Part shown: one piece after another, positions 11,805 to 42,901 of the stretch
How the letters are laid out: every line of letters starts with the position of its first letter
Numbering within the stretch: position 1 is the first letter of the stretch
From: a virus
Lineage: Duplodnaviria; Heunggongvirae; Uroviricota; Caudoviricetes
DNA length: 43,312 bases
Virus record (IMG/VR): IMGVR_UViG_2565956616_000006
Location: 1 to 43,312 of that record
Direction: 5' to 3' (one strand)
Position numbers and translations under genes: made by a program
The notes under the pieces: model-generated
Told to the model about the DNA's origin: nothing
Database searches by the model: none
Seen by the model: the letters and a program-made list of their open reading frames with translations, nothing else

Positions 11805-11850
11805 ATTCGTAATGCGAAGGTCGTAGGTTCGACTCCTATTATCGGCACCA
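11805..11850 (+). tRNA. 3' 46-nt fragment of tRNA-Thr(CGU) (thrW-type): anticodon loop through CCA. Displaced att copy, not a complete tRNA.
   Basis: ATTCGTAATGCGAAGGTCGTAGGTTCGACTCCTATTATCGGCACCA equals the 3' part of E. coli/Salmonella thrW as remembered. The upstream sequence does not supply an acceptor/D arm. P22 is known to share a 46-bp core with thrW. Confidence 0.8.
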
Positions 11851-11851
11851 T
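11834..11851 (+). repeat. att core copy 1 (TCCTATTATCGGCACCAT)
   Basis: Identical 18-mer also at 30355-30372 and 42759-42776, all in the same orientation. Confidence 0.9.
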
Positions 11852-11963
11852 TCAAACATCTCCCCAAGTCTACTAAAGTCTTTCAAAACCCCTTATAATC
11901 CGCGTATTAAAGCCCCGCTCGTCTTTTGACGTCTACTAAAGTCCCTCAAAATCTACGGTCAGA

Positions 11964-12013
11964 TGGGGGTACTTATGGGGGTATTTGCTGTTCGGTTTAG
12001 TGGAGGTACCCCC
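11964..12013. repeat. Arm-type repeats TGGGGGTA(C/T): two direct (11964-11984) and one inverted (12004-12013), next to the integrase start
   Basis: TGGGGGTACTTATGGGGGTAT here matches TGGGGGTACTTTTGGGGGTAT at 30273-30293 (20/21). The pair brackets element 2 just inside its att cores. Confidence 0.7.
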
Positions 12014-12015
12014 AA

Positions 12016-13230
12016 GTGAAACTCAATGCCCGTCAAATAGACACAGCCAAGCCAAAAGAGAAGGCTTACAAGCTGGCCGATGGTGGCGGTTTGTATCTCT
12101 TGGTAAAACCTAATGGAGGTAAATACTGGCGACTTAAATATCGTGTAGCTGGTAAAGAGAAGCTATTGGCACTAGGTGTTTATCCTGAGGTTACTCTAGC
12201 CGATGCTCGGGCAAAACGTGAAGATGCGAAAAGAGGTATCGCTGGTGGTATCGATCCGATGGAAGCGAAACGAGAGGAAAAGATTGCCCGGGAAACGCAG
12301 TTAAACAACACCTTCAAAGATATTGCCATTGAGTGGCACAGCAGCAAATTAAAAAAATGGTCTGCTGGTTATGCTTCAGACATCCTCGAAGCCTTCAACA
12401 AAGATGTGTTCCCTTACATTGGCAAAAAACCCATCGCCGAAATCAAACCACTTGAACTTCTGAATGTGCTGCGTCGCATCGAGGGGCGCGGTGCTACAGA
12501 AAAAGCCAAAAAAGTGAGGCAACGGTGCGGGGAAGTTTTCCGCTATGCAATAGTCACTGGTCGCGCAGAGTATAACCCTGCACCAGACCTTACTAGCGCG
12601 ATGCAAGGCCATGAATCTAATCATTACCCTTTCCTTACAGCCAAAGAATTACCTGATTTTTTCAAGGCATTGTCCAGTTACTCAGGAAGCGCATTGGTTG
12701 TTATGGCGGCTCGTCTACTGATTATCACCGGCTTGCGGACTGGCGAACTACGTGGCGCATTATGGGATGAAATTGATTTCAACAAGGCTATCTGGGAGAT
12801 ACCCGCTTCACGTATGAAAATGCGGCGGACTCATATTGTGCCATTGTCTGAGCAGGCTCTTTCGCTTATTGGGAAGATTAGAGAAATAACAGGCAATTAC
12901 CCTCTTATGTTTCCCGGGCGCAATGATCCAAGGAAAACAATGAGCGAGGCCAGCATAAACCAAGTGTTTAAGCGCATTGGCTACGCTGGACGTGTAACTG
13001 GTCATGGGTTCCGGCACACTATGAGTACGATTTTGCATGAGCAGGGCTATAACACCGCGTGGATAGAAACGCAGCTCGCTCACGTTGATAAGAACTCAAT
13101 TCGTGGCACATACAACCATGCGCAATATCTGGATGGAAGGCGGGAGATGCTTCAATGGTATGCCGACTATATGGATTCTCTCGAGCATGGCGGAAATGTG
13201 GTGCATATGGTGTTTGAAAAACACGCATGA
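12016..13230 (+). CDS. int: P4-family tyrosine integrase with N-terminal arm-binding (DUF4102-type) domain, 404 aa
   Basis: N-terminus L.ARQI..AKP.EK.YKL.DGGGLYL.V.P.G.K.WR.KYR..GKEK.L.LG.YPEV.LA.AR. Catalytic R (GLRTGELR), HGFRHT, Y (RGTYNH). Immediately downstream of a tRNA-derived att. Confidence 0.9.
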   Translation: MKLNARQIDTAKPKEKAYKLADGGGLYLLVKPNGGKYWRLKYRVAGKEKLLALGVYPEVTLADARAKREDAKRGIAGGIDPMEAKREEKIARETQLNNTFKDIAIEWHSSKLKKWSAGYASDILEAFNKDVFPYIGKKPIAEIKPLELLNVLRRIEGRGATEKAKKVRQRCGEVFRYAIVTGRAEYNPAPDLTSAMQGHESNHYPFLTAKELPDFFKALSSYSGSALVVMAARLLIITGLRTGELRGALWDEIDFNKAIWEIPASRMKMRRTHIVPLSEQALSLIGKIREITGNYPLMFPGRNDPRKTMSEASINQVFKRIGYAGRVTGHGFRHTMSTILHEQGYNTAWIETQLAHVDKNSIRGTYNHAQYLDGRREMLQWYADYMDSLEHGGNVVHMVFEKHA

Positions 13231-13374
13231 AACAACTGGACAAGTATACAGAGGTTTACTAAAGTATAGGGGAGTAGATTGATAAAAACTCACAGAGGAT
13301 TGCTATTTAACAGTTAGCCCTGGAGAAGGGCAATCGCTCTTTTATAAACGAAGGTGTATTGAGCCTTCTACGTC

Positions 13375-13436
13375 GCTGACAAAGCGGAATGTTCTTTAAC
13401 AGGCTTTGGCGCTGACAAAGCGCAATTGTTCTTTAA
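13375..13436 (+). repeat. Two ~25-bp direct repeats GCTGACAAAGCG(G/C)AAT(T)GTTCTTTAA upstream of alpA
   Basis: Copies at 13375-13399 and 13411-13436, read directly. Likely a regulator-binding region; function inferred only. Confidence 0.5.
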
Positions 13437-13658
13437 AACTACTGGATGTCACGCCTAATAGCGTGATCCTGCCGAAATGCAGGGTAGCTCTACCCTTGTG
13501 GAGCAAACAAACCAAAACAATCTGACTATCTTTTATAAAAGACCGCAATATGTTTTTCATATTGTGGTCTTTGGCGTATTCGACATTTGACGCAAATAAA
13601 ACTCTCGCCATTCGTTGCAGGAGGGAGTTATTGCGTCATTAGTACAGGATATTAATAA

Positions 13659-13862
13659 ATGGCTAATTACAATTCATTAATTCGTCTCTCTGAAGTTCAA
13701 AGGCGAACTGGTTATAGCAAAGCATGGATTTATCGTCTTATTAGTCAGGGGAGGTTCCCTAAACAGGTAAAAATTGGAAGTCGGGCAATTGCTTTTGTTG
13801 AGTCTGAAATAGATGAATGGATTGAGAAGTGTATATTAGAATCTAGAGACGAGGTGGCCTGA
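13659..13862 (+). CDS. alpA: AlpA-family (MerR-like HTH) transcriptional regulator/excision activator, 67 aa
   Basis: L.RL.EV..RTG.S...IYR.I..G.FP.....G.R...F...EI.EWI is the AlpA/Phage_AlpA pattern. Typical position after a P4-type int. Confidence 0.85.
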   Translation: MANYNSLIRLSEVQRRTGYSKAWIYRLISQGRFPKQVKIGSRAIAFVESEIDEWIEKCILESRDEVA

Positions 13863-14293
13863 TGGAAAAGAAAAACCGCCCATTACAGGCGGCTAATTCA
13901 GATATTCGTGTATCTGATGTTACGCCCCTTACAAAATCCCTTCAAGCACCAAAGCGCACACCGAAAAAGCATCGTGCCAGAGTCTATATGCTGCGTACTG
14001 GTATAGAGGGATGGACAGAAAATGACATTCTTCGCTACTGCCGTCTGTCTTCTGGTCGTAACTATGCAACAGAGTTAGAACGCCAGCTTGGAATCACTCT
14101 GGAGCGTATCGACGAAAAGAATCCTGATGGTATCGGAACACACCTTCGCTACCGTTTCTCCTGCCGTGGTGATGTTCTGAAAGTGATCACTCATATTAAC
14201 CATCTTGCGAACATAAATGATCACAACGGACTTTCTCAGCAGGAAATTGCCGACATTCTGAAACTCTACCCGGACGCGTTTAACGCCGCCTAA
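13862..14293 (+). CDS. Hypothetical protein, 143 aa
   Basis: TGATG coupling to alpA; same-strand operon. No family recognised. Confidence 0.55.
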   Translation: MEKKNRPLQAANSDIRVSDVTPLTKSLQAPKRTPKKHRARVYMLRTGIEGWTENDILRYCRLSSGRNYATELERQLGITLERIDEKNPDGIGTHLRYRFSCRGDVLKVITHINHLANINDHNGLSQQEIADILKLYPDAFNAA

Positions 14294-14305
14294 CGGAGAC
14301 TGAAA

Positions 14306-15139
14306 ATGAACATCGAAAAAAGCAGATTAATTTCTGAGGCCGCCCCTCATCTGAACGCCTCTCTGGGCACAATTAACGGTAATGAATTTGCCGCAATTGT
14401 CCCGGTTATTCCTGGTCATATCGGTGGGCGTGAAACCAATATTGTTAGCGCAAAAGCGTTACACAAAGCGTTGGGCGTGGGAAAAGACTTCTCTACATGG
14501 ATCACTGATCGCATCTCTGAATATGACTTCACCATTGGGCACGATTACTCAGTCCATAAAACAATTTCCCCAAATTTGGGGAAAAGCCCGAATGGCGCGG
14601 CTTACAGCAAGATAAAGCACTCTGGCAGACCCGGCAAAGACTATCTGTTAAGTGTCGGAATGGCGAAAGAACTGGCAATGATCGAACGCAATGATCAGGG
14701 TCGCGCTATCCGCCGTTATTTCATCCAGTGCGAGGAAGAATTACAGCGTAGCGTGCCTGAAATCGCCGCCCGCTATCGTCGCCAGCTAAAAGCCCGTCTC
14801 AGTGCCGCAAACAACTTTAAGCCAATGTGCGATGCGCTGAATATGGCCCGTGCCGAGATGGGTAAAACGACGCAGCAACACCACTACACAAACGAGAGCA
14901 ATATGATTTCTCGTATCGTTCTTGGTGGGCTAACTGCTAAGCAGTGGGCGCGGATAAATGGCTATTCTGGCGAACCTCGCGACCATATGAACGCAGAACA
15001 GCTTGAGCACCTCTCATATCTCGAAAGCACCAATATCACGTTAATTGATATGGGCATGGAATATGAGCAGCGCAAAGGAGAACTCACCCGCCTGTCGCAA
15101 CGCTGGCTCGCCAAGCGTCTGGAGGTGGTCAATGTCTAA
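14306..15139 (+). CDS. AntA/AntB-type phage antirepressor-like protein, 277 aa
   Basis: N-terminal pattern (....V.AK.LH..LGV.KDFS.WI..RI..Y.F..G.DY, YLLS..MAKELAM.ER...G...R.YFI.CE) resembles the AntA domain. Confidence 0.65.
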   Translation: MNIEKSRLISEAAPHLNASLGTINGNEFAAIVPVIPGHIGGRETNIVSAKALHKALGVGKDFSTWITDRISEYDFTIGHDYSVHKTISPNLGKSPNGAAYSKIKHSGRPGKDYLLSVGMAKELAMIERNDQGRAIRRYFIQCEEELQRSVPEIAARYRRQLKARLSAANNFKPMCDALNMARAEMGKTTQQHHYTNESNMISRIVLGGLTAKQWARINGYSGEPRDHMNAEQLEHLSYLESTNITLIDMGMEYEQRKGELTRLSQRWLAKRLEVVNV

Positions 15140-15314
15140 GCCAACAGGAACACCACAACCACAAAAACGCTACAAAGATGCCCACGGAGCACTCGTTACT
15201 GTCGAAAGCGTGTCTCACAACCGAGTGACGTTTTATCGCGACGGGTATCAATCGCCATGCGTACAACCGCTGGCGCGTTTCATGAAGGAGTTCGCGGAGG
15301 TTAACAAATGCTAA
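15132..15314 (+). CDS. Small protein, 60 aa (DUF4222-like by recollection)
   Basis: ATG at 15132 preceded by GGAGGTGG. Overlaps the stop of the upstream gene. The ORF-track start at 15045 is an extension. Confidence 0.5.
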   Translation: MSKPTGTPQPQKRYKDAHGALVTVESVSHNRVTFYRDGYQSPCVQPLARFMKEFAEVNKC

Positions 15315-15745
15315 CCGTCCAGAAGAAGACATTTTCACTGGCTGGTATGTCGCCAAAATCCAGCAATATGACGGCAAAGTCAGGCATTAATACCGCAGAT
15401 ACAAGCAAAGTTTATCATTTGCTGGTGGTCGGAACGGATGCCTTAACCATATCAGAAATCTCGGGCGATGATATTAGCATTGAGAAGGTCAGCGGCTGCG
15501 CCAGAAAATTTCTGGTCGTAGATGATGTCTTCCGCTCGTGTAGTGACTCCACAAAAACATTCGTCCACGCGCGTGACGTTAACGAAATGAGCGCGATGTA
15601 CTGTGCATCTGGTGCTTCCAATAGCGAGTTTTCGGAGTCCATAAAAAAGAGCTTGCCGTTATGCGGCAACACGGTTTATGGTTATAAGGCACCTCATAAA
15701 ACGGGTGCCGGGATTGGCGTCCTGGTAAATCGAATGGCGACATAT

Positions 15746-15767
15746 GACGCGCCGAGCGTCTTTTTTT
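15746..15767 (+). terminator. Intrinsic terminator inside the early operon, 9 nt downstream of an antisense-RNA target site
   Basis: GACGC-GCCGA-GCGTC followed by TTTTTTT. ATCGAATGG at 15729-15737 is complementary to the loop of the RNA at 15835-15913. Confidence 0.6.
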
Positions 15768-15834
15768 ATGTCGTAGGTCTGACTCACCCATTTTTTGGGC
15801 GTTGGTGTATAATCCAGCGCCTTTGTCAATCAAT

Positions 15835-15913
15835 GGTGGCTCAGGCAGGGGCTTCTTCGGAAGCGCCGGTATCCATTCGAGCCGGTTACGCCAACCCTGT
15901 CTGGGCTACCACC
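15835..15913 (+). ncRNA. C4/CI-type immunity antisense RNA candidate (79-nt cloverleaf-like fold)
   Basis: The closing stem pairs 15835-15850 with 15895-15913 (5 bp, then a bulge, then 11 bp including G-U pairs). One inner hairpin is GCTTC-TTCG-GAAGC (UUCG tetraloop). A second hairpin, GCCGG...CCGGT, carries the loop TCCATTCGA. That loop is complementary to TCGAATGG(A) at 15730-15737 and 15952-15960. A TATAAT -10 lies at 15808-15813. Confidence 0.7.
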
Positions 15914-15969
15914 AGCGAAATTGGCGTTTCCGGTGGTAGCGTTACATGCTATCGAATGGAGGCTGCCAC

Positions 15970-16164
15970 ATGCTGGCTACTACCCCTACCCAAAAACCGC
16001 AATTTATCTGGATTATCGCCGCAGTTCGCCGCGATTGCCCGACAATTACCGCCAAAATTCATCATATTGCTGCCGAGTCTGAACGCGATGCTCGCCGTTC
16101 TCTGGTGCGCGATCACGTCTGCTTTTTTGCTGGTCGTATCCGCATGGAGGTGGCTCATGATTAA
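15970..16164 (+). CDS. Icd-like (host cell-division inhibitor family) small protein, 64 aa
   Basis: MLATTPTQKPQFIWIIAAV.... resembles Icd-like proteins of P1/P4-type elements as remembered. Its GGAGG SD (15958-15962) is overlapped by the antisense target site. Confidence 0.6.
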   Translation: MLATTPTQKPQFIWIIAAVRRDCPTITAKIHHIAAESERDARRSLVRDHVCFFAGRIRMEVAHD

Positions 16165-16375
16165 AACCTACGATGTGCATATGGATCCCCTCGAACGCAC
16201 AAGCCAGATCATCACACTGACAGAAGTGATTAACGACATTCTGGTGAGCAACTCTCCCTCACGAGACGAAAGACTGAAGGCGTTACTCGCGATATTGGAT
16301 CTCGCCGTTCGTGACGTTCATTTCCTGCTGGAAGGTGGCGAAATGCCAGGAAAAACGGGGGCAACCAATGAATAA
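16157..16375 (+). CDS. Hypothetical small protein, 72 aa
   Basis: ATG at 16157 after GGAGGTGG. Overlaps the icd-like stop. This is the C-terminal part of the 355-aa ORF-track call. Confidence 0.55.
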   Translation: MIKTYDVHMDPLERTSQIITLTEVINDILVSNSPSRDERLKALLAILDLAVRDVHFLLEGGEMPGKTGATNE

Positions 16376-16562
16376 CTCAATTAATACCCCTCGCCTTACG
16401 TCCGCACTTCAATTAATCGAGCAAGCAGCGGCTGTCCTGGTTGCTGTCAGTCTTTCGGCTGAAGAAATGGACGCTGCTGATGTCGTGGATGCGATTAAAG
16501 CGTGCTCATCTTTGGTTAACGATGCCCGTGCCGAGCTGGTAATTCTTGGGGGTGAAAAATGA
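16368..16562 (+). CDS. Hypothetical small protein, 64 aa
   Basis: ATG at 16368 overlapping the previous stop. Compact same-strand operon. Confidence 0.5.
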   Translation: MNNSINTPRLTSALQLIEQAAAVLVAVSLSAEEMDAADVVDAIKACSSLVNDARAELVILGGEK

Positions 16563-16822
16563 ATATCAACTTAATTTATCGTCATCCGTGTGAGCTGGAA
16601 ATTGAATCATTGCTGGGGCGTGAAGAGCCATATCCAGACACATTCACTCCCGCAGATTGCGCGACTGAACGGCTTACCAGAGCGCGCACAGGTCTGGTTC
16701 ATGTGATGAATGAGATTGTTCCCTCGGTGGGAGGGGAACAGGCGACAGTAATCAATAGCTGGCTACAAAAAGTTACCTCCCTGATAGATATCGGTTTAAT
16801 CGATGTGGAGAGTGCGAAATGA
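16559..16822 (+). CDS. Hypothetical protein, 87 aa
   Basis: ATGA start/stop overlap with the upstream gene. Confidence 0.55.
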   Translation: MNINLIYRHPCELEIESLLGREEPYPDTFTPADCATERLTRARTGLVHVMNEIVPSVGGEQATVINSWLQKVTSLIDIGLIDVESAK

Positions 16823-17040
16823 CCAACATCCAGCTCATTGAAGCGCAATGTCGCATCGAACAGGTTCAGACTGTTTTAGGGTTCTGGCTTGAAGGGGCCA
16901 GCCCCAGCAACAGAGACAAGTTAATGATTGGCGCGGTTATGTCACTGCTTAATGGCGTACCAGAAGCTATTCAGGAAGCGGACGAATTGTTGGGCAAATA
17001 TGAGTTACAGAATCATTCAGGCGAGGCGAAACATGAATAA
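16819..17040 (+). CDS. Hypothetical protein, 73 aa
   Basis: ATGA start/stop overlap with the upstream gene. Confidence 0.55.
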   Translation: MTNIQLIEAQCRIEQVQTVLGFWLEGASPSNRDKLMIGAVMSLLNGVPEAIQEADELLGKYELQNHSGEAKHE

Positions 17041-17635
17041 TTTCTTAACTTTCCATGCAGAAGCAACGCCTGACGGCGTAAACATCATGTACCGCAGCAA
17101 CGATGGCATGACAGAACGCGTTGAGGCCATCTCATATATTGATGCCGTAAATCGTCTGGATGCCGGGGATTATGACGATAAACCAGATGAAGGTATGTCA
17201 ATACATCTCGCTATTGCCGATGGCGGCAACCAGGGATATTTCGATTACACATCACAGCATAACGTCATTATGTGGAGATGGCTGATCGCAACAGTATTCA
17301 TGCTGGAAATGAGAGAGGAAAACGGCACTGTCAGCATCATTGATGATACTGGCAATCCTTCCGAAGTGGCTGTTTATTCCAACGGCATCGTCGCCATGCC
17401 GCTGTATCCAGTAGCAGAGCGCCTCGCTATGGCAAACAACATTGAGGGCGCGATGATAGAACGTTTTGGCATCGAGTCTGGCACAGAACGCGCCATCATT
17501 TTCTACAGAGCCATGATGGATGTGGAACAAGGAGCACTGACTCCATTTGGTCGTGAAACGCTTGCTGAACTTCACAACAGCTTTATAGCTGAACTGAATG
17601 AAAACGGCATGCCAGCGGAACCAGTGACGCACTGA
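17033..17635 (+). CDS. Hypothetical protein, 200 aa (ORF-track start at 16928 trimmed)
   Basis: ATG at 17033 overlaps the previous stop (ATGAATAA). The upstream extension lies inside the preceding gene. Confidence 0.55.
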   Translation: MNNFLTFHAEATPDGVNIMYRSNDGMTERVEAISYIDAVNRLDAGDYDDKPDEGMSIHLAIADGGNQGYFDYTSQHNVIMWRWLIATVFMLEMREENGTVSIIDDTGNPSEVAVYSNGIVAMPLYPVAERLAMANNIEGAMIERFGIESGTERAIIFYRAMMDVEQGALTPFGRETLAELHNSFIAELNENGMPAEPVTH

Positions 17636-17645
17636 GGATGGAGCC

Positions 17646-17987
17646 ATGATTACTAAAAATTTCCGACTGAATGCGCTGGCAAATAAGTATGCGTCGGCAC
17701 TGTATAACCACATTACCTCCACCAGCGGCGGGGACTATTTCATGGTTGATGCGGACGGCGAGGCCGTCCGTGTGGAAATCGTCAATGGAGTAAAAGGCGT
17801 TCGCAGCCTGATCGATAGCTACACACTGGCAGCCATGAAAGTGTTCTACCCGCAGTGGGAAACCGTGGGGATCGAGCTTCTTGAACGTTGCGTCACTAAG
17901 GACGGATTGACTGACGTCGGGCGTGAGATATGGCAAAGCATGGTTAATGACATGGGCGCAACTGTAGCGGGAGGTTCTCATGCGTGA
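17646..17987 (+). CDS. Hypothetical protein, 113 aa
   Basis: SD-like GGATGGAG 4 nt upstream. Same operon. Confidence 0.55.
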   Translation: MITKNFRLNALANKYASALYNHITSTSGGDYFMVDADGEAVRVEIVNGVKGVRSLIDSYTLAAMKVFYPQWETVGIELLERCVTKDGLTDVGREIWQSMVNDMGATVAGGSHA

Positions 17988-18351
17988 AAATGCAGAAATG
18001 GCGCTTAGCTCAGCAATCGGAGAGCAGGTGGCAAAGATTGCTGGTGCTGTGTGGATTCATAACCTTCATTCTACTGGTGAAGAGAAAATGGTAATTCAGA
18101 CGCCAGAGGGACGCACCATTACTACATCTCTGAAGCCGTCAGATGTTTGTGATCTGATTTGCGCATTCATGTACCCAGCAATGAGGACTGTCCACGGCGA
18201 TAAGTGGAAACTTGCGACAACCGCTGAATTTGATATGTGGCTAAACAATGATGGCATGCTGACTGATTACGGAATAACCAAGTGGCAGATGCTGGTTAGC
18301 CATATCGCAAACGCTATAGACCACGTGGGGTACGGTGATGCGAAACATTGA
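17980..18351 (+). CDS. Hypothetical protein, 123 aa
   Basis: Overlaps the previous gene by 8 nt. Same operon. Confidence 0.55.
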   Translation: MRENAEMALSSAIGEQVAKIAGAVWIHNLHSTGEEKMVIQTPEGRTITTSLKPSDVCDLICAFMYPAMRTVHGDKWKLATTAEFDMWLNNDGMLTDYGITKWQMLVSHIANAIDHVGYGDAKH

Positions 18352-33673: not shown

Positions 33674-33726
33674 TCCTCATTCACTTTAGTAGCGCATTAA
33701 GCGTGATTTATAAGGAGATAATTCTA

Positions 33727-34407: not shown

Positions 34408-34416
34408 GGAGAATAA

Positions 34417-34686: not shown

Positions 34687-34782
34687 CAACAGATCGGGCA
34701 ATACATATGGCAAATGCATTTATGGCGATATTCATCGTAACTATGGCATTAAGTTTTTATAATCCACATAAAAAGAGGGAAA

Positions 34783-35169: not shown

Positions 35170-35186
35170 AAATAAAAGGAACAACA

Positions 35187-35390
35187 ATGATCGACCATAT
35201 ACAGGAAACACAATTATTTCAGATGATCCTGTCTGATGCAAAAAACTATGCTGAGTTAATTCGGCTGGCAAAAGAAACAGAAGACTACGAAGCATTAGAG
35301 CGTTATCGTGATGAAGTGCTGACGCTCAAGACACCTTTTAACATCGTATTGAATATGATTAATGATGCATTACAAGGAGAAGCCGCATAA
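35187..35390 (+). CDS. Hypothetical helical protein, 67 aa
   Basis: AAAGGA SD upstream. Same operon. Confidence 0.55.
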   Translation: MIDHIQETQLFQMILSDAKNYAELIRLAKETEDYEALERYRDEVLTLKTPFNIVLNMINDALQGEAA

Positions 35391-35698
35391 TGGAAGAAGA
35401 TATTAGCAATGCAATGGAACAACTTTTAGATCTGACTATCTCACTACAAACAAGAATAAATCAAGCCTATTCAGATTTATGCGATTACACGCTCTCTCAA
35501 TGCGTTATTAGCTTAATGAAGGTGAATGTAAGCCTTGACGATTTTATCTCTCTGGGGAGCGGTTTAGAGCTATCAGAGGACAATGCCAGGCTGTGCACTC
35601 AAATCATCACAGACACCGCAAGCACGTTAAAGGCTGCAAGTGAAGAGATTCAGCAATTAGTAAATGATTTAGCAAAAAGTGCTATTTCTTCTAAGTGA
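35390..35698 (+). CDS. Hypothetical helical protein, 102 aa
   Basis: TAATG coupling with the upstream gene. Confidence 0.55.
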   Translation: MEEDISNAMEQLLDLTISLQTRINQAYSDLCDYTLSQCVISLMKVNVSLDDFISLGSGLELSEDNARLCTQIITDTASTLKAASEEIQQLVNDLAKSAISSK

Positions 35699-36605
35699 TA
35701 ATGAAAATCATTTGCATTTATAACAATTTCATTATATAATGAAATTAGGGGTAGATAAAAAGGTTTTGACTGGTGTTAATCCTTCTACTGTCATAAATCC
35801 CTGCATATGGAAGGTGATAGCCTCAAAGGTTGAGTGGCATTAACCTCTAACAAATATTACCTTCCATCTCTCAAGAAGTTTTAGAATAATCATAACTCCC
35901 TCTTTGATTGTTGATTGTTTCTACGTTGTGTTGATGAATGTTGTTAGGCATTGTGCTTAATTTTGATAAAAGCGGGTAGGTGTTATCTCCTTGCCCTTCC
36001 CGCTATTATTTTTCATCTATGCTTATCCTAAAGCTCCTTATTTTGTCCGAAAACATTAAAGAGCCTTACACTGATAGTTATATTTTATAACTATTTACTA
36101 ACATCATTAAACTCTTATTTAATGACGGAAGTTAGTAACAGAATAATCTATTAAGTTGTTGTCAAAAAACTATCATCTGCATAGCGTTAGCCGCAAGTAG
36201 AGAGAGTTTAGTTAAGAATGGTGCAATAAACTTTGGAAATATTGATAGCAAAACTAGTTTTATAGAATGCGGATCTATAATCTTTGGTTGTAAAAACGAT
36301 TTTCTGAAACGGTAGATTACTGTTGGTGTAGTTAATCATTATTAAAAATTTAATCTGTGAGTAGATTGGAATAGTGATTCCTTAAAATCTGACTGGTGCA
36401 TCCACACCATGAAAGATAGCGGTTGGCCACCGCGCCCCGAATAGATATTCCTGATTGATTCCGCATGTTTTCCTAAGAGCATGTTTTCAGGAGTATCTAT
36501 TCACCCTTTAAGCATATCATCAAGTATATTTAAAAAGTGTATTTGCTGATATGTTTAATCCTCTTATAGTTTAACTTATCAATTATGTAATTGCCCGCAC
36601 GTTAA

Positions 36606-36655
36606 AGCCCCTTTGCTGGTCAGAATTAACCTCTTACGGCATTGGGGCTTTTTAT
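36606..36655 (+). terminator. Long-loop rho-independent terminator ending the 35.7-36.6 kb non-coding stretch
   Basis: AGCCCC-N32-GGGGCT followed by TTTTTATTT. Confidence 0.55.
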
Positions 36656-36683
36656 TTGTCTGGCACTAACAGGAACGTTATTT

Positions 36684-36881
36684 ATGAAACAAGAAATGAT
36701 TATCAGCAAAGACGGGGAAACGATGATTGTTAGTGATGAAAACCTCATTAAGGTTGCCGCACTGTTGGGAGTTACTCCCGAAAGTCTTCGTTCTACCACT
36801 GCTCAATTATTTAAATCGGCTGATGCGGTTAGTCTTGCTGATGCCCTTAAATCTAAAATTAAACAACTGAAAGGAAAATAA
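36684..36881 (+). CDS. Hypothetical small protein, 65 aa, first gene of the capsid-type cluster
   Basis: ATG at 36684. The ORF-track TTG start at 36642 lies inside the terminator stem. Confidence 0.45.
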   Translation: MKQEMIISKDGETMIVSDENLIKVAALLGVTPESLRSTTAQLFKSADAVSLADALKSKIKQLKGK

Positions 36882-36885
36882 TCTT

Positions 36886-37269
36886 ATGGCTAACCCATAT
36901 GGAAAATTAAAAGCAGTGAATGCGGATAACTCCCGTTCACGCTGTAAGGTAGTAGCTTACGCTGCTGATCCAGTGCTGCAAGATCGCCTCGTCAAACTGG
37001 CTTCACCTCTCACTGACGATCTTATTGTCGGGGCTTTGCTGAAAGCCGATGGCACCAAAGCAACAACCGCATCTGATATTGCTCACGTAGTAGTTGAACC
37101 GGCTTATGAAGGACAGGAAAGCGTAGTGGTTGCACATCCTACTTTCGTTATTCTGGCTGAAGATGGGATTGAATTTAACAGCATGGAAAAGGCAAGTGTT
37201 ATTGCAAAACTGCAATCTCTCGGCTTTGTAATTGCTGGTTATGAAGAACTTGCGATCCCTACGACTTAA
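36886..37269 (+). CDS. Small protein immediately upstream of the capsid candidate, 127 aa (possibly decoration/scaffold-like)
   Basis: Size and position mirror lambda D relative to E. AAGGA SD upstream. No confident sequence motif. Confidence 0.5.
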   Translation: MANPYGKLKAVNADNSRSRCKVVAYAADPVLQDRLVKLASPLTDDLIVGALLKADGTKATTASDIAHVVVEPAYEGQESVVVAHPTFVILAEDGIEFNSMEKASVIAKLQSLGFVIAGYEELAIPTT

Positions 37270-37283
37270 CAAGGAAAATAATA

Positions 37284-38315
37284 ATGAATGATTTATCAAC
37301 ATATTTTGGCGTTAATACTGCGGTAGTAACTCCATTTGCTTATGAGAATGCACTTAATACCCTGATTACTAATCTCGATCTGTTCGATGTGCAATATCAT
37401 ACAGAAAACAGCATTCTTCTTACCGACCTGATTGATCAGTTTGTGCAGGTAGCTGGGGAAACCTCGCCTTACGCTCAAAGCGACTGGAACGCCTCTAAAC
37501 GTCAGGAATGGTCAAACAAACTTTTCCAGATGAAACACGTCGGCAGTATTAACGCTGTTACTTCTCGTGACCTGGAACAATACAGCCGCCAATATCCAAA
37601 CCGTTCTGATGCTATGCTGGTAGCGGTTAATGATTTCTCTGAGGCTCATTACCGTTCACACGCAAACCGTGTTGAAGTGGATCTGATTACCGCGCTGCTG
37701 GGCCTGAAAGTTGAATCTGAATATGCCGGACAAGGTGATCTCGACTTCCTCGACGGTCAGGCTAAAACCACGGTACCCGCTATCGACTTTGCATCGACTA
37801 CTGTTAACCCGTTCCTTGCTATTCGTAAAGCGGTGCGCTTACAGAGTGAAAAGCTGGGGTCTGGTCTTGCTGCAAAGCGAACTGGTGTAATTATCTTTGC
37901 TGCTGGCACTGCTGCTGATGGTTTGTCATCTAACCCGCTGATCAGTGACATGGTGAAATATGCAGGCGATGCGAGTGCTACGGCCCTGTTTACCCGTATG
38001 GTTGATTCTAACCCAGCCTATGACTCTTTCCAGATTGGTGGGATCACTGTTATTGATGTGTCAATGTTTCCTGAGATTGTTGCTCACATCGGAGAGAACG
38101 GTTTCGCAATTGTTCCGGTAATGGATAAAGCGGCACAGTGTTACCAGCTTCATAGCGGCGTTGGTGTGCGTCATGCTGAGTTAGGTCAAGATGCCGTGTT
38201 GCATCACCAATATCTAATCAAGGATGAATTCCAATTCCCATCTGTGGTTACTGAGACATCTTATCTGCCAGTAAACAACATTCCGCAAGCTATCATCTTC
38301 GGATCTGCTGCGTAA
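37284..38315 (+). CDS. Major capsid protein candidate, lambda gpE-like (Phage_cap_E-type), 343 aa
   Basis: Length (lambda E is 341 aa). The overall pattern resembles E-family proteins: a central ...E.DLITALLG.... block, then IDF....NP...I...V.......G.......II..A.TAA..L..NP. Strong SD and its own terminator. Needs HHpred. Confidence 0.55.
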   Translation: MNDLSTYFGVNTAVVTPFAYENALNTLITNLDLFDVQYHTENSILLTDLIDQFVQVAGETSPYAQSDWNASKRQEWSNKLFQMKHVGSINAVTSRDLEQYSRQYPNRSDAMLVAVNDFSEAHYRSHANRVEVDLITALLGLKVESEYAGQGDLDFLDGQAKTTVPAIDFASTTVNPFLAIRKAVRLQSEKLGSGLAAKRTGVIIFAAGTAADGLSSNPLISDMVKYAGDASATALFTRMVDSNPAYDSFQIGGITVIDVSMFPEIVAHIGENGFAIVPVMDKAAQCYQLHSGVGVRHAELGQDAVLHHQYLIKDEFQFPSVVTETSYLPVNNIPQAIIFGSAA

Positions 38316-38350
38316 TAAAGCGTTAATAGACGATTCCCCATCGGGGCAAT

Positions 38351-38419
38351 AAGGGTAAAGGGATTAACTAACCTGTAGGCGCAAATACAGTAACGAATCT
38401 CTTTGCCCTTTTTGTTTTT
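38351..38419 (+). terminator. Long-loop terminator after the capsid candidate
   Basis: AAGGGTAAAG (38351-38360) pairs with CTTTGCCCTT (38401-38410, one G-U pair). Followed by TTTGTTTTT. Confidence 0.5.
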
Positions 38420-38466
38420 CTACTGTCTACAAACCCAAATAAAAATATATATGTGAGAGAAAACCA

Positions 38467-38679
38467 ATGAATACAGAAAACCCACAATCCTTTATTCTTA
38501 AGGCTGTAAAAGAACTGGCAGCTATTAGCGAGGAATCAGTTATAAACACATCGGCGCTTTGCCGCCTTTTAGAAATTGATGCAAATAATGTGCGCCAGCG
38601 TGTCTTTCAGACTGGGTGCAGCACTTTCGAAGCAATTCAATACTATTGCTCTAAAAACAATAATAAACAACAATCATAA
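38467..38679 (+). CDS. Hypothetical small protein, 70 aa (HTH-like)
   Basis: SD GAGAG upstream. NTSALCRLLEIDANNVRQRV looks like an HTH. Confidence 0.5.
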   Translation: MNTENPQSFILKAVKELAAISEESVINTSALCRLLEIDANNVRQRVFQTGCSTFEAIQYYCSKNNNKQQS

Positions 38680-38697
38680 TACAGGGAAACAATTAGC

Positions 38698-40539
38698 ATG
38701 TTAGACCTTACCGTCAGCCGCTTATCAAACGTTGTCACCTTCCAGGTTGATCGACCATCATTAGAGAAAGCAAAAGCAGAAGTAGAAAAACTTCGTAAAC
38801 AAATGGCGGCTGTGAAAGATATAGAATTGCGTGTTAAGACACATAAACAATCAACCGCTAAAGCAAAAAAAGACGTAGACGATATTGCTAAAAAGCAAGC
38901 ACAGGCTGATAAAGCTAATGCTAAAGCACAATTAGCCGCTCAACGTGTAGTTGCAAGAGAACAAAAAGCCCTGGCAGCACGCAAAGAGAAGGCAGAATTA
39001 AAGCTTTTAGACGTTGGATCAAGCATTAGTGCAATGCACCGTCTTTCTGTAGCGGAACAATATAAAGCTATTGCACAGGCTAGAGAAATTGCCCTCCAAT
39101 ATGAAAGAGGCGCTATTAGTCTGGCACGTATGAATAGCCAAATGAAACGCCTACAACAGCAACAACGTAAGATTAATGGCAATCGTAACGCTCACGCTAA
39201 AGCCTATGCACCTGTTAAGGGTAGCGGGAGTATTGGCGGCGGTGCTGCGGCTGTTATGCTGGGTGGCTTAGGCGCTGGCGCTGCATATATGGCTATGAGC
39301 AAAGCCTCTGAATTTGTTACTAACAGCTTTGCCAGTGCTGAAACGCTGGGAGAATTGTATAGCCGTGCGAAGCTGGGCGGTGTAGACGTTAACCAGATGA
39401 ACAATATTGAGCAATGGGCCTACAAAAACGGCGTTGATTCAATGATGGGGGATCAAGGTAAACGTAAGTATCTCGATCAGATGAAAGATGTACGGGAGAA
39501 GGCTACTAAATCTTATGATGAGGCTGAATATGTAGTTGATAAGAAAACTGGTAAAGGAGAATGGAAGGGCGGCGATAGCGGCATCAATACTTTAATGAAT
39601 GAAGGATTCTTAACTAAAAAGGATCTAAAAGACTTTGCTGATAATCCGGCTGGTCTGGTTAGTAAAGCAGTTCAGGGAATGGTGAAGAAAGGCTATTCAG
39701 ATGCACAAATCGGTAGTCGTCTGGAAGATCTGGCTGATGATTTGATGCTCACCTCTAAATACTGGACACGCTCCGCTAAAGAAGTGGAACAATCAGCACG
39801 AGAACAACGAGAATCAGGGCGCTGGGTAACACAGGCACAACAGGAAAGCGTTATTAAATTCCGTGAACTGAATAATGCACTTAGTGGGCTTTCTGACTCA
39901 CAAGGGATCGCCTTTGTTGATGGCTTTATGAAATCTCTTGATCCGAAAGTGATTGAAGAGTTTAAAAAGAGCATGGTTGCAATGCTGCCAATGTTTACCA
40001 AATTAGGCGAGGCTATCGGCGGATTGGTTAACGCTGTAATGAAAGCAATCAACTGGCTGATGAAAAACGACGAGAAGACGGCAGCTATTCAGAAGAATTT
40101 AGGTGATGCACCGCCACTATCTAACGAAGGAATGAAGCAGAATCTTTCTAATCTCACTCCTGATCAATATAAAGGCGCTGGCACCGGAACAATTAAGCCA
40201 GATAACAGCAATTCCCTGGTTAACACTATTAAAAGCTGGTTTATGCCAGAAGAAACGGTAGGTGGGGCGCAGGCTGTAAATCAATACAGTCTCGAAGGAC
40301 AAAACATTGCAAATCTGAAACAGAGTGCAGCACAACAAGCTTTCAAGGCTCCTTCTTACACCTTTGCGCCTGTTATCCACTTCAATCCAGAATTACAAGT
40401 AAATGCAGAAGTGCCGCTAACTATCGAATCAGACACCGGACGATTGAGCGAATTTATCGACTTCAAATCAAAGGCATCCTCCGCTGAGTTTAGCAAGCTA
40501 TTAACGCTGGGTGTTATGTCAGGCGGGTCAACCTATTAA
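38698..40539 (+). CDS. Tape-measure-like protein, 613 aa
   Basis: Lys/Ala/Gln-rich coiled-coil N-terminus. Gly/Ala hydrophobic segment GGGAAAVMLGGLGAGAAYMAM. Long helical remainder. Followed by a Dit-like gene, as in siphovirus tail modules. Confidence 0.55.
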   Translation: MLDLTVSRLSNVVTFQVDRPSLEKAKAEVEKLRKQMAAVKDIELRVKTHKQSTAKAKKDVDDIAKKQAQADKANAKAQLAAQRVVAREQKALAARKEKAELKLLDVGSSISAMHRLSVAEQYKAIAQAREIALQYERGAISLARMNSQMKRLQQQQRKINGNRNAHAKAYAPVKGSGSIGGGAAAVMLGGLGAGAAYMAMSKASEFVTNSFASAETLGELYSRAKLGGVDVNQMNNIEQWAYKNGVDSMMGDQGKRKYLDQMKDVREKATKSYDEAEYVVDKKTGKGEWKGGDSGINTLMNEGFLTKKDLKDFADNPAGLVSKAVQGMVKKGYSDAQIGSRLEDLADDLMLTSKYWTRSAKEVEQSAREQRESGRWVTQAQQESVIKFRELNNALSGLSDSQGIAFVDGFMKSLDPKVIEEFKKSMVAMLPMFTKLGEAIGGLVNAVMKAINWLMKNDEKTAAIQKNLGDAPPLSNEGMKQNLSNLTPDQYKGAGTGTIKPDNSNSLVNTIKSWFMPEETVGGAQAVNQYSLEGQNIANLKQSAAQQAFKAPSYTFAPVIHFNPELQVNAEVPLTIESDTGRLSEFIDFKSKASSAEFSKLLTLGVMSGGSTY

Positions 40540-40586
40540 TCATCACTGTGGGGCTGTTTAGCCCCCTTAAATAAGGATTACAAATT

Positions 40587-41255
40587 ATGGCAATGGGTCC
40601 GTTAACCATTGGTCGCCCGACTGAGGCGAAAATCAACAGCACAAGCAACGATAGAACAACCAAAGGGGGTAACGGCTTTGCGATCATTACCTCTAACCTC
40701 GGCAGTGGTGCAAATGCTGCTTACAATGACTACCAGGCATTATCATTTGATAGCGTGGAATCGACGAAAGTTAGCCGAAATGCAGACGTTACAAGCTATG
40801 CCGTCGAATCAGGATCAGAAGTTAGTGATCATGTTCAAATACGGAATAACAAGTTCACATTACAGGGGCGTATCTCTGAAACCGTATTGAAGCTCAATCC
40901 CGATATGATTAAGAATGCGGGAATTAACGGCAATCGACGTATGCTTATGCTTGAATACCTAAATCAGTTGATGGACAGTCGCCAACCTTTCCTACTTGTC
41001 ACTGAGTTAAAAAATTATGACAACGTTGTGTTAGTTGGCATGTCTTATGAAGAAGAAGCAAGCGAAAGTCTATTGTTTACTCTTGATTTTGAGCAAATCC
41101 GTCTTGTCTCTAAAGCAACTACAAGCGCAATTGCGGTAAAAACAGCACCAAATAAATCTGTAGGGGGACAGGTTAAAATGCAGGTAAATACAACAGAACA
41201 GAAAAATCAAAAAAGCCCAGGGCAAGACGTTGTAACGCCAGTATTTAAACAATAG
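40587..41255 (+). CDS. Dit-like (distal tail/baseplate-type) protein candidate, 222 aa
   Basis: Motif ADVTSYAVESGSEVSDHVQIRNNKFTLQGRISE resembles the pattern (t.hpvE.G..isDh....p..l.l.g.is) remembered for Dit-like N-domains. Position after the TMP-like gene. Confidence 0.45.
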   Translation: MAMGPLTIGRPTEAKINSTSNDRTTKGGNGFAIITSNLGSGANAAYNDYQALSFDSVESTKVSRNADVTSYAVESGSEVSDHVQIRNNKFTLQGRISETVLKLNPDMIKNAGINGNRRMLMLEYLNQLMDSRQPFLLVTELKNYDNVVLVGMSYEEEASESLLFTLDFEQIRLVSKATTSAIAVKTAPNKSVGGQVKMQVNTTEQKNQKSPGQDVVTPVFKQ

Positions 41256-41296
41256 CCTTAAACGCCTATGAAACGCTCTGTAACGATGTAATTATA

Positions 41297-41330
41297 AAAG
41301 AGGCCACCAATCTATGTTGAAGCCTCTTTA
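41297..41330. terminator. Bidirectional terminator between the convergent Dit-like and integrase genes
   Basis: AAAGAGGC-N17-GCCTCTTT flanked by A/T runs. Confidence 0.5.
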
Positions 41331-41336
41331 TTGCGC

Positions 41337-42701
41337 CTATGGCGTTGTTTTGCGCCTTAAATTTGATTTTTTATTGATTGATAAGCCTTTCTCTATTTCA
41401 GGGTAGCGTAGAAGCTCAATATAGTTTTTAAGCTCTACTGGAGAAGCTGCATTCTTGCTATATGTGCGGAATGTCTCTGTATTGCCGCGTGTATGGCCCA
41501 GGAGAAGGGCGATCCTGTCTTCTGGAATTTGATTTCGATCAAGAAGCTGTGCTACTCCGTGTCTCAGAGAATGAAACACTTTCCTTTCTGTTCCCTTTTC
41601 CCCTAAAGCCTTTCGTTTAGCTCTTGTAAATCGTTGTGTATGCCACGTAGAGCGTTTACCGTCAGCACGCTCTGTAATGCTGGCGTGATAGAACAAAAAG
41701 CCATTGTGAGGCTTTTCACGAAGAGATAACACCAATGGAGTGATAAGGCTATGCACAGGCACAAGACGTGCCGCAGCTTTCGTCTTTCCCTGTGTGATTT
41801 CAAAACACAGCACACCTTCGATCTCTTTCACATCGTCTATTGTGAGACTTGCTATCTCATTGATCCGCATACCTGTATATAAACCGATAAGACACAAAGC
41901 CATCATTTCTTTGTTTTCTGCTGAATTACCGGAAAATACTTGCAACACCTGCAATAACTCTTTGTTAGAAAATGCCTCGTAGCTCTCTCTACTTTGTGCC
42001 ACATCAAGCCTATGCCCTCGCCAGGGGGAGAGCGCCCTTTCTGGCGCATCGTGGTAACGTGATGAAGCTAACTCCCATAGCTGGGCCATTGGGCTGATAT
42101 AATTTGCAATTGATTGTTGTGAAAGGGTTTTTTGCATGTGTTCAATCCAGCCTGTAACAGTGGTGCGGCTTACATCTTGCAATGCAATATCAGGCTTTTT
42201 ACGGTAGGAGAGAAACATCTCTACCGCTTTTCTTGCCTTAGCTAAAGTGGCTGGCTTCTTCTTCGTGCTGTTAATTGTCAGGTAGATTTCAAGAATTTTA
42301 AGCAATGACGGACACGAAGACGCTGTATCTTGCATTCTGGTAGCTGTTTTGGCGTATTTAGCCTTACTGCGTAACAGTTCCAGCGTGTTTTCTATTGTGC
42401 TGTTTACAGGGGCAACACTCTCCCGTAAGCAATGGTATTCATCTGCAATCTGATCACGCTTTCTACGTGCAACACGAAGATTACTTGTGTGCAGACTTCT
42501 GACAAACGTCCTTTTTCCTTCAAAAAAGGGCTGCATATACACAGGCAGCGTGATCCTTAAATAGTAGTTACCGTAAGAATCACAGATTAAGTATTGGTTA
42601 GGCTTGTATCTCATAAAATCTCCGGCTAAAGTGTCGGAGCGTTTGTAATGTGAAAATTGATTGTGACGCATAGAAAATGATGATTTTTCTATAAGATTCA
42701 A
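41337..42701 (-). CDS. Tyrosine recombinase/integrase of element 3, up to 454 aa (the true start may be the internal MRYKPNQY...)
   Basis: R (GMRINEIASL), HSLRH, LLGH and the Y of a C-terminal tyrosine-recombinase domain. Abuts att core 3. This is the same relative layout as intF-ptwF at the distal end of E. coli K-12 CP4-6 (from memory). Confidence 0.85.
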   Translation of the reverse strand: MNLIEKSSFSMRHNQFSHYKRSDTLAGDFMRYKPNQYLICDSYGNYYLRITLPVYMQPFFEGKRTFVRSLHTSNLRVARRKRDQIADEYHCLRESVAPVNSTIENTLELLRSKAKYAKTATRMQDTASSCPSLLKILEIYLTINSTKKKPATLAKARKAVEMFLSYRKKPDIALQDVSRTTVTGWIEHMQKTLSQQSIANYISPMAQLWELASSRYHDAPERALSPWRGHRLDVAQSRESYEAFSNKELLQVLQVFSGNSAENKEMMALCLIGLYTGMRINEIASLTIDDVKEIEGVLCFEITQGKTKAAARLVPVHSLITPLVLSLREKPHNGFLFYHASITERADGKRSTWHTQRFTRAKRKALGEKGTERKVFHSLRHGVAQLLDRNQIPEDRIALLLGHTRGNTETFRTYSKNAASPVELKNYIELLRYPEIEKGLSINKKSNLRRKTTP

Positions 42702-42758
42702 TCAATTAGTAATGGTCGTAGGTGATGGCATTAACACGAGATTAATCGAGTGTTTTAC

Positions 42759-42776
42759 TCCTATTATCGGCACCAT
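42759..42776 (+). repeat. att core copy 3 (distal junction with the chromosome; tRNA 3'-end pseudo-fragment)
   Basis: ACTCCTATTATCGGCACCATT (42757-42777) matches 21 nt around copy 1. Confidence 0.9.
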
Positions 42777-42901
42777 TAAAATCAAAGAGTTACCCCATAT
42801 TTAAATACACCACGTTTCCTCCTGTGCCGCATTTGTGCCATTGTAACCCTGGCAATTCATCAAAATACTGTTCTGACATCAGGCAGTGCAGGTGCAGCTA
42901 T

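Follow-up and report, generated by a model that had tools for sequence, protein, structure and literature searches.

A thrW array of three different integrative elements: a P22-like prophage end, an EcCIMP1-type island and an uncharacterised element with putative capsid and tail genes

The 43,312 nucleotides (nt) of IMG/VR record IMGVR_UViG_2565956616_000006, referred to below as the window and numbered from its first nucleotide, cover the right-hand two thirds of an array in which three different integrative elements, and not one island, are stacked at thrW, the gene for tRNA-Thr(CGU). From left to right these are the late-gene end of a P22-like (Lederbergvirus-type) prophage (element 1; 1-11804, plus strand), an 18.5-kb phage-inducible chromosomal island resembling EcCIMP1 in identity and gene order (E2; 11852-30354, plus strand), and a 12.4-kb integrative element of an uncharacterised family (E3; 30373-42758, plus strand), beyond which lies chromosomal flank (42777-43312) that the RefSeq annotation of the corresponding loci of strain MB49 and of a strain itself named E2 (L001 and L002) gives as a LysR-family pseudogene on the paoD side. 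The array probably arose through independent site-specific insertions into the 3' end of thrW, implying three tyrosine integrases, with E2 as an EcCIMP1-type satellite and E3 as an element likely to use some other helper.

That the region is not one island was apparent from a sample of 5,426 complete E. coli genomes searched with junction and reconstructed-site queries. The empty attB, in which thrW is fused directly to the sequence that follows the third core copy of the window, was present in 948 of these genomes, once at 100% identity. Both complete elements of the window were also found alone at this site: MB49 has the order proBA, thrW, E2, LysR pseudogene, paoD, and strain E2 (NZ_CP086662; always called strain E2 here) has proBA, thrW and E3 followed by the same LysR-pseudogene/paoD flank. 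Matches to E2 began at window position 11805 and ended at 30372-30375 in dozens of genomes, at least 49 of the complete genomes carrying the element as a unit of its own; matches to E3 began at 30355, and at least 80% of the E3 query was covered in 115 genomes. In each case the boundaries of the matches were the start of the thrW fragment or a core. Complete prophage-to-E2 and E2-to-E3 junctions were recorded in 18 and six genomes, respectively, and the occupants of thrW varied: EN-1077 carries a variant of E2, a variant of E3 and a further integrase gene past the E3 core copy; in strain E1 the Vat island comes after a P22-like prophage; in MP1 a Vat/MarR island comes after EcCIMP1; and in LS45 a complete thrW stands beside the prophage int, with E2 at the other end of the P22-like prophage. 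The first-pass annotation of this DNA had proposed three different stacked elements, with a complete tRNA beside the prophage int, and had held that the proposal would fail if the 11.8-42.8 kb region always behaved as one unit. The comparison that it recommended, with strains having an empty thrW or only a subset of the elements, bears the proposal out, in that empty, E2-only and E3-only sites are all present, the solo elements and separate junctions contradict indivisibility, and the complete tRNA stands beside the prophage int in the related array of LS45.

The elements meet at exact repeats. An 18-mer, TCCTATTATCGGCACCAT, occurs three times in the window, at 11834, 30355 and 42759, always on the plus strand and with no mismatch, just as had been described, and no copy arose in 100 dinucleotide-preserving shuffles. 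Copy 1 (11834-11851) serves as attL of E2, copy 2 (30355-30372) as both attR of E2 and attL of E3, and copy 3 (42759-42776) as attR of E3 and of the whole array. The 46-nt 3' fragment of tRNA-Thr(CGU) previously noted at the end of the prophage is likewise real: 11805-11850 (plus strand) is identical to the last 46 nt of thrW, with the MB49 gene as reference, and corresponds to a P22/CP4-6-type attP core that forms the prophage attR. A complete tRNA was detected nowhere in the window by ARAGORN. The 47 nt at 11805-11851 are present in 108 phage records, in which the spot is labelled attP where annotated; 17 of the 108 (HK542, mEp213 and SfX among them) match the upstream 155 nt as well, at 97-98%, and SfV, SfII and other records have only the 47 nt in common with the window. 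Because both the 47 nt and the upstream arm match phage attP records, the left boundary of the array is taken to be a standard P22/CP4-6-type attR. Beyond the core itself the flanks of the three copies have little in common, copies 1 and 3 sharing 21 nt (ACTCCTATTATCGGCACCATT) and copies 2 and 3 each being preceded by a TGTTTT(G/A)(T/C) stretch.

Where E2 or EcCIMP1 stands solo, its right core reads TCCTATTATC-GCACCAT, one G fewer than in the window (MB49, L001:22551; MP1, L003:9718). At the two E2-E3 junctions read (window 30355; L005:20251) the right core of E2 is ...GGCACCAT, and perfect 18-nt identity at copy 2 is confined, among the sites read, to such junctions (the window and EN-1077). 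Because thrW keeps GG in both solo copies read but attR has a single G, these copies would place the E2 crossover in GCACCAT(T).

The integrases also point to independent elements. That of E2 (12016-13230, plus strand; Pfam Arm-DNA-bind_3, Phage_int_M and Phage_integrase) is a P4-type tyrosine recombinase, 50% identical to the Kapi1 integrase, whereas that of E3 (41337-42701, minus strand; Pfam DUF6538, Phage_int_SAM_5 and Phage_integrase) is a tyrosine recombinase of a different family, 24% identical to the former and over the catalytic domain only, and is located at the tRNA-distal end of its element, reading inward. A single tyrosine integrase had been attributed to each interval at first pass; these two, of unrelated families, are the ones in the window, and no further recombinase was found among the open reading frames (ORFs) of at least 80 amino acids (aa) that were scanned or in the RefSeq annotation of identical copies. 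The prophage integrase is known only from the related LS45 array.

E2 can be assigned to the EcCIMP1 satellite family described by Pick, Stadel and Raivio (ISME J 2025; PMC11773190). EcCIMP1, from E. coli MP1, measures 19,963 bp and lies in a tRNA-Thr gene between proA and yagU, where TCCTATTATC flanks it; it excises only with phage Kapi1 present, and more on Kapi1 induction, and it is transduced by Kapi1, both processes requiring int and alpA, the latter its master regulator (PMC11773190). No recognisable defence system was reported in it, and P22 was named by its authors as a close relative of Kapi1 (PMC11773190), which is classified as a Lederbergvirus. E2 and EcCIMP1 are 97.9% identical at the nucleotide level over 11.3 kb (window 11844-23149) and diverge beyond. 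They have in common the thrW site between proA and the yagU/pao side, the TCCTATTATC repeat, matching arm repeats and iterons, and the gene order int, alpA, 143-aa ORF, AntA/B, DUF4222, 'ash' region, primase, DUF2824, gp7-like, PerC, the DUF2824 and DNA-transfer genes lying 3' of the primase in E2; EcCIMP1 in MP1, like E2 here, is in tandem with a second island. Whereas the gp14 and gp7 proteins of the two are 99% identical, the right third differs, its gp20-like protein being 48% identical and its gp16-like protein not alignable, so that gp20 and gp16 appear as distant alleles exchanged between the two elements. Unlike EcCIMP1, E2 carries AbiD and adjoins a P22-like prophage and E3; MP1 has a second (alpA_1-type) helix-turn-helix (HTH) gene, and none is annotated in the E2 copy of MB49, which is identical.

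The prophage beside E2 is the right kind of phage for an E2 helper, a role for which it is a candidate. The ejection proteins gp14, gp7, gp20 and gp16 of E2 are 23, 53, 41 and 30% identical, respectively, to those of the neighbouring prophage, and the idea that the E2 genes are a recent copy of their neighbour's was rejected on these values (23-53%). The earlier suggestion that a putative helper and putative satellites had been placed in physical linkage is upheld in part, E2 belonging to a family shown to be a satellite of a P22-like phage; E3, on the evidence given below, is unlikely to be a satellite of the same neighbour.

In E3, a 343-aa HK97-fold major capsid protein is predicted at 37284-38315 (plus strand) by Pfam and by structure. 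Its homologues are 40-57% identical, and Pfam Phage_cap_E was matched in nine of 14 aligned proteins (query included). The structural model (predicted local distance difference test, pLDDT, 58; predicted template modelling score, pTM, 0.59) gave 18 Protein Data Bank (PDB) matches at E <= 0.001, all to phage capsid proteins and the best to PhiTE (1.5e-9) and ICP1 (3.6e-9), from which the predicted fold is closest to the capsids of large myophages; by tblastn the gene had no match in 50,697 phage records. Downstream are genes for a 613-aa tape-measure-like protein (38698-40539, plus strand; phi92 gp134, E = 4.7e-22; phrog_16051, E = 1.3e-31), for which the phage matches listed are 26-31% identical and almost all in myophages of 141-152 kb, and for a 222-aa tube-initiator (Dit-like) protein (40587-41255, plus strand; phi92 gp135, E = 5.8e-52; Pfam Dit_like), which shares 48-53% identity with proteins from phages like phAPEC8 and phi92. 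The structure paper on phi92 gives gp134 as tape measure and gp135 as tube initiator, with gp124 as major capsid protein and gp123 as cement protein (PMC13450770). A 127-aa ORF directly upstream of the E3 capsid gene (36886-37269, plus strand) is, by position and size, a weak candidate for a capsid decoration or cement protein: phi92 gp123 has 130 aa and the same position, the sequence match between them is only E = 0.98, and the model of the 127-aa protein, whose homologues were too alike, has a pLDDT of only 41. Another ORF (33670-34407, plus strand) is a possible replication initiator or HTH protein, again weakly, from matches to phrog_270 ('replication initiation protein'; E = 1e-5) and Pfam HTH_36 (E = 1.4e-4, below the family cut-off).

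The array was probably built as follows. Each integrase would recombine inside the terminal part of the tRNA gene; the P22/CP4-6-type attP carries a 46-nt tRNA copy, and E2 and E3 match it only over TCCTATTATC(G)GCACCAT. Each insertion would rebuild a complete thrW on the proA side from element-borne sequence and leave a partial copy distally; because of this the site would stay usable and elements would pile up, either the partial copy or the rebuilt tRNA being able to receive the next one. By homology with EcCIMP1, E2 would remain silent until a P22-like helper entered lytic growth, whereupon alpA would be induced, the integrase would excise the element, and replication via the primase and, putatively, two iteron clusters would be accompanied by transfer in helper particles. 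E3 would be a reduced element whose capsid, tape-measure and tube-initiator proteins are related to those of large virulent myophages, and would parasitise those phages and not its neighbour. As to movement of the array as a whole, P22 packaging starts at pac, inside terS, and proceeds one way only, in the direction of the late genes and on into the chromosome, in ~44-kb headfuls; flanking DNA is thereby transferred 100-1000 times better than by generalised transduction (PMC8575938). The late operon of element 1 reads towards the array, and in LS45 terS lies ~19 kb from the right end of the prophage; because packaging would run rightward from pac at that distance, there is a possible route to co-mobilisation in which, if the prophage behaves likewise, a first 44-kb headful would carry all of E2 and the first ~6 kb of E3. 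The order of insertion, the activity of these copies, the identities of the helpers and co-mobilisation are all matters that we infer.

Several observations weigh against this account. Prophage-E2 and E2-E3 junctions were found together in none of the 5,426 genomes, the triple array being that of this one assembly, and the left end of the prophage, the prophage integrase and the intact thrW all lie beyond the edge of the window. The G/GG difference among the cores gave no order of insertion, none of the simple orders tried yielding GG at all three core copies. EcCIMP1 itself is transduced at a very low rate, and a Kapi1-like prophage was present in only two of 21 strains carrying it (PMC11773190). 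The gp14 of E2 is of Kapi1 type, 83% identical to that of Kapi1 as against 23% for that of the adjacent prophage. In E3, no portal, terminase, protease or head-tail connector was recognised by Pfam or PHROGs in the ORFs scanned, remote homologues being possible.

Four other explanations were considered, three of which concern the array. Misassembly as the source of the repeated cores and of the stacking can be set aside, since although the exact triple combination is absent from the 5,426 complete genomes, each junction occurs separately in independent closed genomes at 94-100% identity, and repeats of 18 nt are much shorter than those that cause assemblers to fail. It is also highly improbable that 11.8-42.8 kb constitutes a single composite island, mobile only in one piece, in which the internal core is a functionless relic: copies 1 and 3, which have 21 nt in common, could in principle recombine and release E2 and E3 together, but each of the two occurs solo, its ends exactly at the core, with thrW on one side and the same flank on the other, the E2-E3 junction is rare (6/5,426), the integrases are of unrelated families, and the guanine-plus-cytosine (GC) content falls from ~45-50% in E2 to ~35% in the left half of E3.

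A better case, if still an unlikely one, can be made for an array that was imported ready-made or was built by homologous recombination between chromosomes with different thrW occupants, for example after transduction. It would accord with the existence of thrW arrays with common junctions in unrelated strains and with the G/GG pattern of the cores, which misfits simple serial integration, and P22-type lateral transduction would move such arrays efficiently. Nevertheless, every junction has an attP x att structure that site-specific insertion must have made at some time, and this explanation concerns where and when the array was formed and not how.

The fourth explanation concerns the lifestyle of E3. 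The order of genes in the E3 family (p128, decoration-like protein, capsid, tape-measure-like protein, inverted integrase) recurs in at least 10 enterobacterial genera, including Klebsiella, Citrobacter, Raoultella, Kluyvera, Kosakonia, Phytobacter, Buttiauxella and Scandinavium, with protein identities across genera of 23-64% and with insertions at tRNA-Thr(CGU), tRNA-Leu(CAA) and tRNA-Gly(CCC). Because the order is kept in at least 10 genera and at three tRNA genes, the family appears to be under selection as a mobile unit, and E3 is accordingly read as one of a maintained mobile family and not as debris. Elsewhere its members often adjoin a second element, represented by a copy of the RNA region described below, an integrase or an integrase fragment (for example L022:7500-7716 and 12000-12173; L009:14773-16044; L006:3835-4395), and stacking therefore appears to be common for this family at other tRNA genes too. 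Relatives of E3 in IMG/VR occurred only within prophage-region predictions of 19.8-58 kb and not as virion-type contigs of ~12 kb.

To our knowledge, P22-like podophages have neither a tape measure nor a tail tube. Because the tail genes of E3 have no counterpart in such a phage, the prophage next door is an improbable helper for E3. With its integrase, small size, incomplete set of virion genes and homologues of structural genes of the candidate helper, E3 has general features of a satellite, and it is tentatively regarded as a candidate satellite, or interfering element, of large virulent myophages, a reading to which we assign slightly less than an even chance. That E3 is instead no satellite, being either the decaying remnant of a myovirus-like prophage or a decoy defence island that poisons the assembly of phi92/phAPEC8-like phages, is doubtful but a serious contender. 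It gains from the failure to find a portal, terminase, protease or recognisable packaging function, from a left 3 kb that is AT-rich with few ORFs, from insertion sequence (IS) elements that disrupt the tape-measure and tube-initiator genes in EN-1077, and from the absence of the capsid gene from some relatives. It has to contend with the conserved gene order across genera and tRNA genes at such low protein identities, and the lack of a close relative of the capsid gene in 50,697 phage records speaks against a recent prophage fragment; the decoy version, for its part, is compatible with a satellite lifestyle. None of the six E3 proteins scanned matched a PADLOC defence model.

Comparison with described satellites is instructive. 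SaPIbov5 with its Ccm, the capsid-forming phage-inducible chromosomal islands (PICIs), PLE of ICP1, and Aci01-2-Phanie are all satellites with either a homologue of a helper structural gene or a lytic myophage as helper, and E3 resembles them in that it is 12 kb long, has an integrase and encodes a capsid protein of its own but far from all the genes of a virion. The homologues of the E3 tail genes point to large virulent myophages, in line with the dependence of PLE on ICP1 and of Phanie on a myophage. By way of contrast, capsid-forming PICIs have a portal, protease, connectors and small terminase (TerS), none of which was detected in E3, so that of the features defining that group E3 possesses only a capsid protein of its own. 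E3 also differs from those satellites in having no TcaP- or Sid-type scaffold, and in having tape-measure and tube-initiator genes, a tRNA-distal integrase and a large candidate structured RNA. We know of no described satellite family with tape-measure and tube-initiator genes, and searches for a satellite with capsid and tape-measure genes or with DUF6538 integrases yielded nothing relevant in the literature covered. A more specific proposal, which we consider speculative and on balance improbable, is that E3 represents an undescribed family of enterobacterial satellites that exploits myophages of the phi92/phAPEC8/PhiTE type and combines a capsid protein, a tape measure and a tRNA-proximal RNA read through from the tRNA promoter. 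With the same reserve, this family would probably also encode a decoration protein and often a tube initiator, and would insert at tRNA-Thr, tRNA-Leu or tRNA-Gly with its integrase at the far end.

The candidate RNA, of ~450 nt, lies just inside the tRNA-proximal end of E3 (30435-30884, plus strand) and on the same strand as the tRNA core. DNA identity across genera in this region is 72-89% where that of the proteins is only 23-64%, and because it contains single-nucleotide indels the region is non-coding. An nhmmer profile recovered 86 full-length homologues among the loci fetched (including L028:1751-2157, L020:1685-2103, L009:1281-1617 and L166:7141-7521 on the minus strand); these are ~340-460 nt long and occur in every element of the family whose tRNA-proximal end was captured, the tRNA, where visible, lying 60-95 nt upstream on the same strand. 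An alignment of 13 divergent homologues (MAFFT/RNAalifold) was misaligned in its 3' half and gave 38 pairs, and a set of eight sequences from the tRNA-Leu group was used instead. For these, RNAalifold predicted 85 pairs, with 95.1% of cells paired, of which 17 change on both sides as compared with 8.5 +/- 1.8 in shuffles, 0 of 500 of which reached 17, and at most five in slid controls; the structure and the count derive from the same eight-sequence alignment. Such compensatory changes support a multi-helix structure for the candidate RNA, and invariant G-U pairs point to the plus strand. An E-value scan of 30300-36900 gave no Rfam match for the region, and a simple scan of 30300-31200 found no sigma-70 promoter. 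In a solo insertion the RNA could be read through from the host tRNA promoter; in the array it is cut off from the thrW promoter by more than 18 kb of E2 and the whole of the prophage. The left 3 kb of E3 in which it lies (30373-33300) has ~35% GC and almost no ORFs of 80 aa or more, and a 52-aa ORF at 30976-31134 is 76-78% identical across genera, far above the other E3 proteins.

The ends of E2 carry repeats that resemble arm-type sites. The motif TGGGGGTAC-TT-N-TGGGGGTAT is present at 11964-11984 and 30273-30293, where arm-type repeats had been reported just inside the E2 cores, and a fifth exact TGGGGGTAY is inverted at 12006-12014, abutting the start codon of int. All five exact copies of TGGGGGTAY in the 43-kb window lie within ~165 nt of the two cores of E2, with a direct pair at each end and the inverted copy on the left, and the paired motif occurs at both ends of the element in MB49, MP1 (EcCIMP1) and EN-1077. 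Because the E2 integrase has an Arm-DNA-bind_3 domain, it is reasonable to label these as candidate arm-type integrase sites of the P' arm (11964-12014) and the P arm (30273-30293, plus strand), at which the integrase would bind. Between the left core and these sites a 21-nt direct repeat, GTCTACTAAAGTCYYTCAAAA, occurs twice (11868-11888 and 11931-11951, plus strand), the copies being 63 nt apart in the left (P') arm; a decayed version persists in the Vat-island remnant of strain E1, and a binding site for an accessory protein is possible.

Inward of the integrase gene, E2 encodes alpA (13659-13862, plus strand; Pfam Phage_AlpA, E = 7e-20) and an AntA/AntB-family antirepressor (14306-15139, plus strand; Pfam AntA, E = 2.7e-21), followed by two RNAs matched over their full length by Rfam, an isrK-like RNA (15689-15766, plus strand; RF01394, 67.1 bits) and a C4-type antisense RNA (15829-15916, plus strand; RF01695, 79.5 bits). 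ORF 15308-16375 is an 'ash family protein' in RefSeq, and its Pfam Phage_ASH match (aa 124-232; window 15677-16003) overlaps both RNAs on the same strand; the 'Ash' protein family may therefore in part be a translated conserved RNA locus. The primase (18335-21094, plus strand; Pfam zinc-ribbon, TOPRIM and DUF927) is followed directly by iteron cluster A (21120-21230), a candidate replication origin in which six exact copies of the 9-nt TGAACCAAC form inverted triplets around an AT-rich spacer. Cluster B (29568-29688), ahead of perC, is its mirror image and a possible counterpart of the P4 crr, and the two clusters contain all 12 exact copies of TGAACCAAC in the window. Between them lie a P22-type gp14/gp7/gp20/gp16 ejection-protein module (21857-26515, plus strand; Pfam DUF2824, P22_gp7 and Inj_translocase; phrog_770, DNA transfer protein, E = 1.9e-161), a weak SieA-like ORF (26534-27148, minus strand; phrog_7745, E = 4.4e-4) and, in the variable right part, an AbiD/Abi_2 abortive-infection gene as putative cargo (27973-28995, plus strand; Pfam Abi_2, E = 2.3e-52; PADLOC AbiD, E = 8.4e-58), and a PerC-family regulator (29725-30012, plus strand; Pfam PerC, E = 2.6e-33) stands beyond cluster B. 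In P22, sieA comes after gene 16, and the SieA-like ORF has that position and orientation, so that window 21857-27148 repeats the P22 order gp14-gp7-gp20-gp16 and then an opposite-strand ORF of this weak type.

E2 also resembles P4 in its P4-type integrase, AlpA, TOPRIM primase and C4-type antisense RNA, the integrase, alpA and alpha-type primase expected of a P4-like satellite in the SatelliteFinder sense all being present, and its two separated iteron clusters recall the P4 ori and crr. Unlike P4, its morphogenetic module consists of P22-type ejection proteins, and whereas the helper of P4 is P2, the known helper of the EcCIMP1 family is a podophage. No psu, delta or sid was found in E2 by Pfam and PHROG scans of its ORFs, those of fewer than 80 aa being only partly scanned, or in the annotation of the identical element.

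Element 1 was identified from Pfam and nucleotide matches and from annotation. It contains gp4, gp10, a tail needle, gp14 (DUF2824), gp7, gp20, gp16, an immI region with Ant, and a tailspike, the relevant Pfam matches being P22_Tail-4, Phage_stabilise, DUF2824, P22_gp7, Inj_translocase, Bro-N with P22_AR_C, and Head_binding; the tail needle is named only from its position and the annotation of relatives. The gp4-gp10-gp26-gp14-gp7-gp20-gp16 order is kept, together with immI (sar and Ant) and a tailspike that includes the head-binding domain, and the P22-type immI includes a sar antisense RNA (8588-8654, minus strand; Rfam RF00262, 71.6 bits against a gathering score of 43). Nucleotide matches are mosaic, to HK620, CUS-3 and other P22-like phages as well as to annotated prophages.

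Neither stacking at thrW nor the EcCIMP1 family is new. The gene is an integration hot spot, and unrelated elements pile up at the same tRNA 3' end (PMC7545054, PMC3203889); PAI III536, the Vat island, GI-thrW of sequence type (ST) 131 and SHI-O are, like the present array, cases of tandem accretion at tRNA genes. Unlike those, the present trio is in none of the 5,426 genomes and places a satellite directly downstream, in the direction of packaging, of the type of phage that its family exploits. The att modules of P22, SfV, SfII, SfX, HK542 and mEp213 and the ptwF pseudo-tRNA of CP4-6 in K-12 likewise have a 46-47-nt thrW fragment at the right end of the prophage; there the chromosome follows, whereas here the fragment is followed by a further element using the inner 18 nt. 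Should the prophage behave like P22, headful packaging in situ would export E2 and E3 at high frequency, excised or not, and the use by three integrases of overlapping parts of one 46-nt tRNA segment offers a natural system for comparing the choice of crossover. E3 and its RNA, which the first-pass annotation did not single out, are potentially the new part. If the RNA is indeed read through from the tRNA promoter, its expression would signal or impose integration of the element, and stacking itself could change the regulation of E3. If the satellite reading is true, E3 with its RNA would constitute a new type of satellite directed against large lytic coliphages, phi92 among them, and would bear on the spread of those phages in E. 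coli that carry E3.

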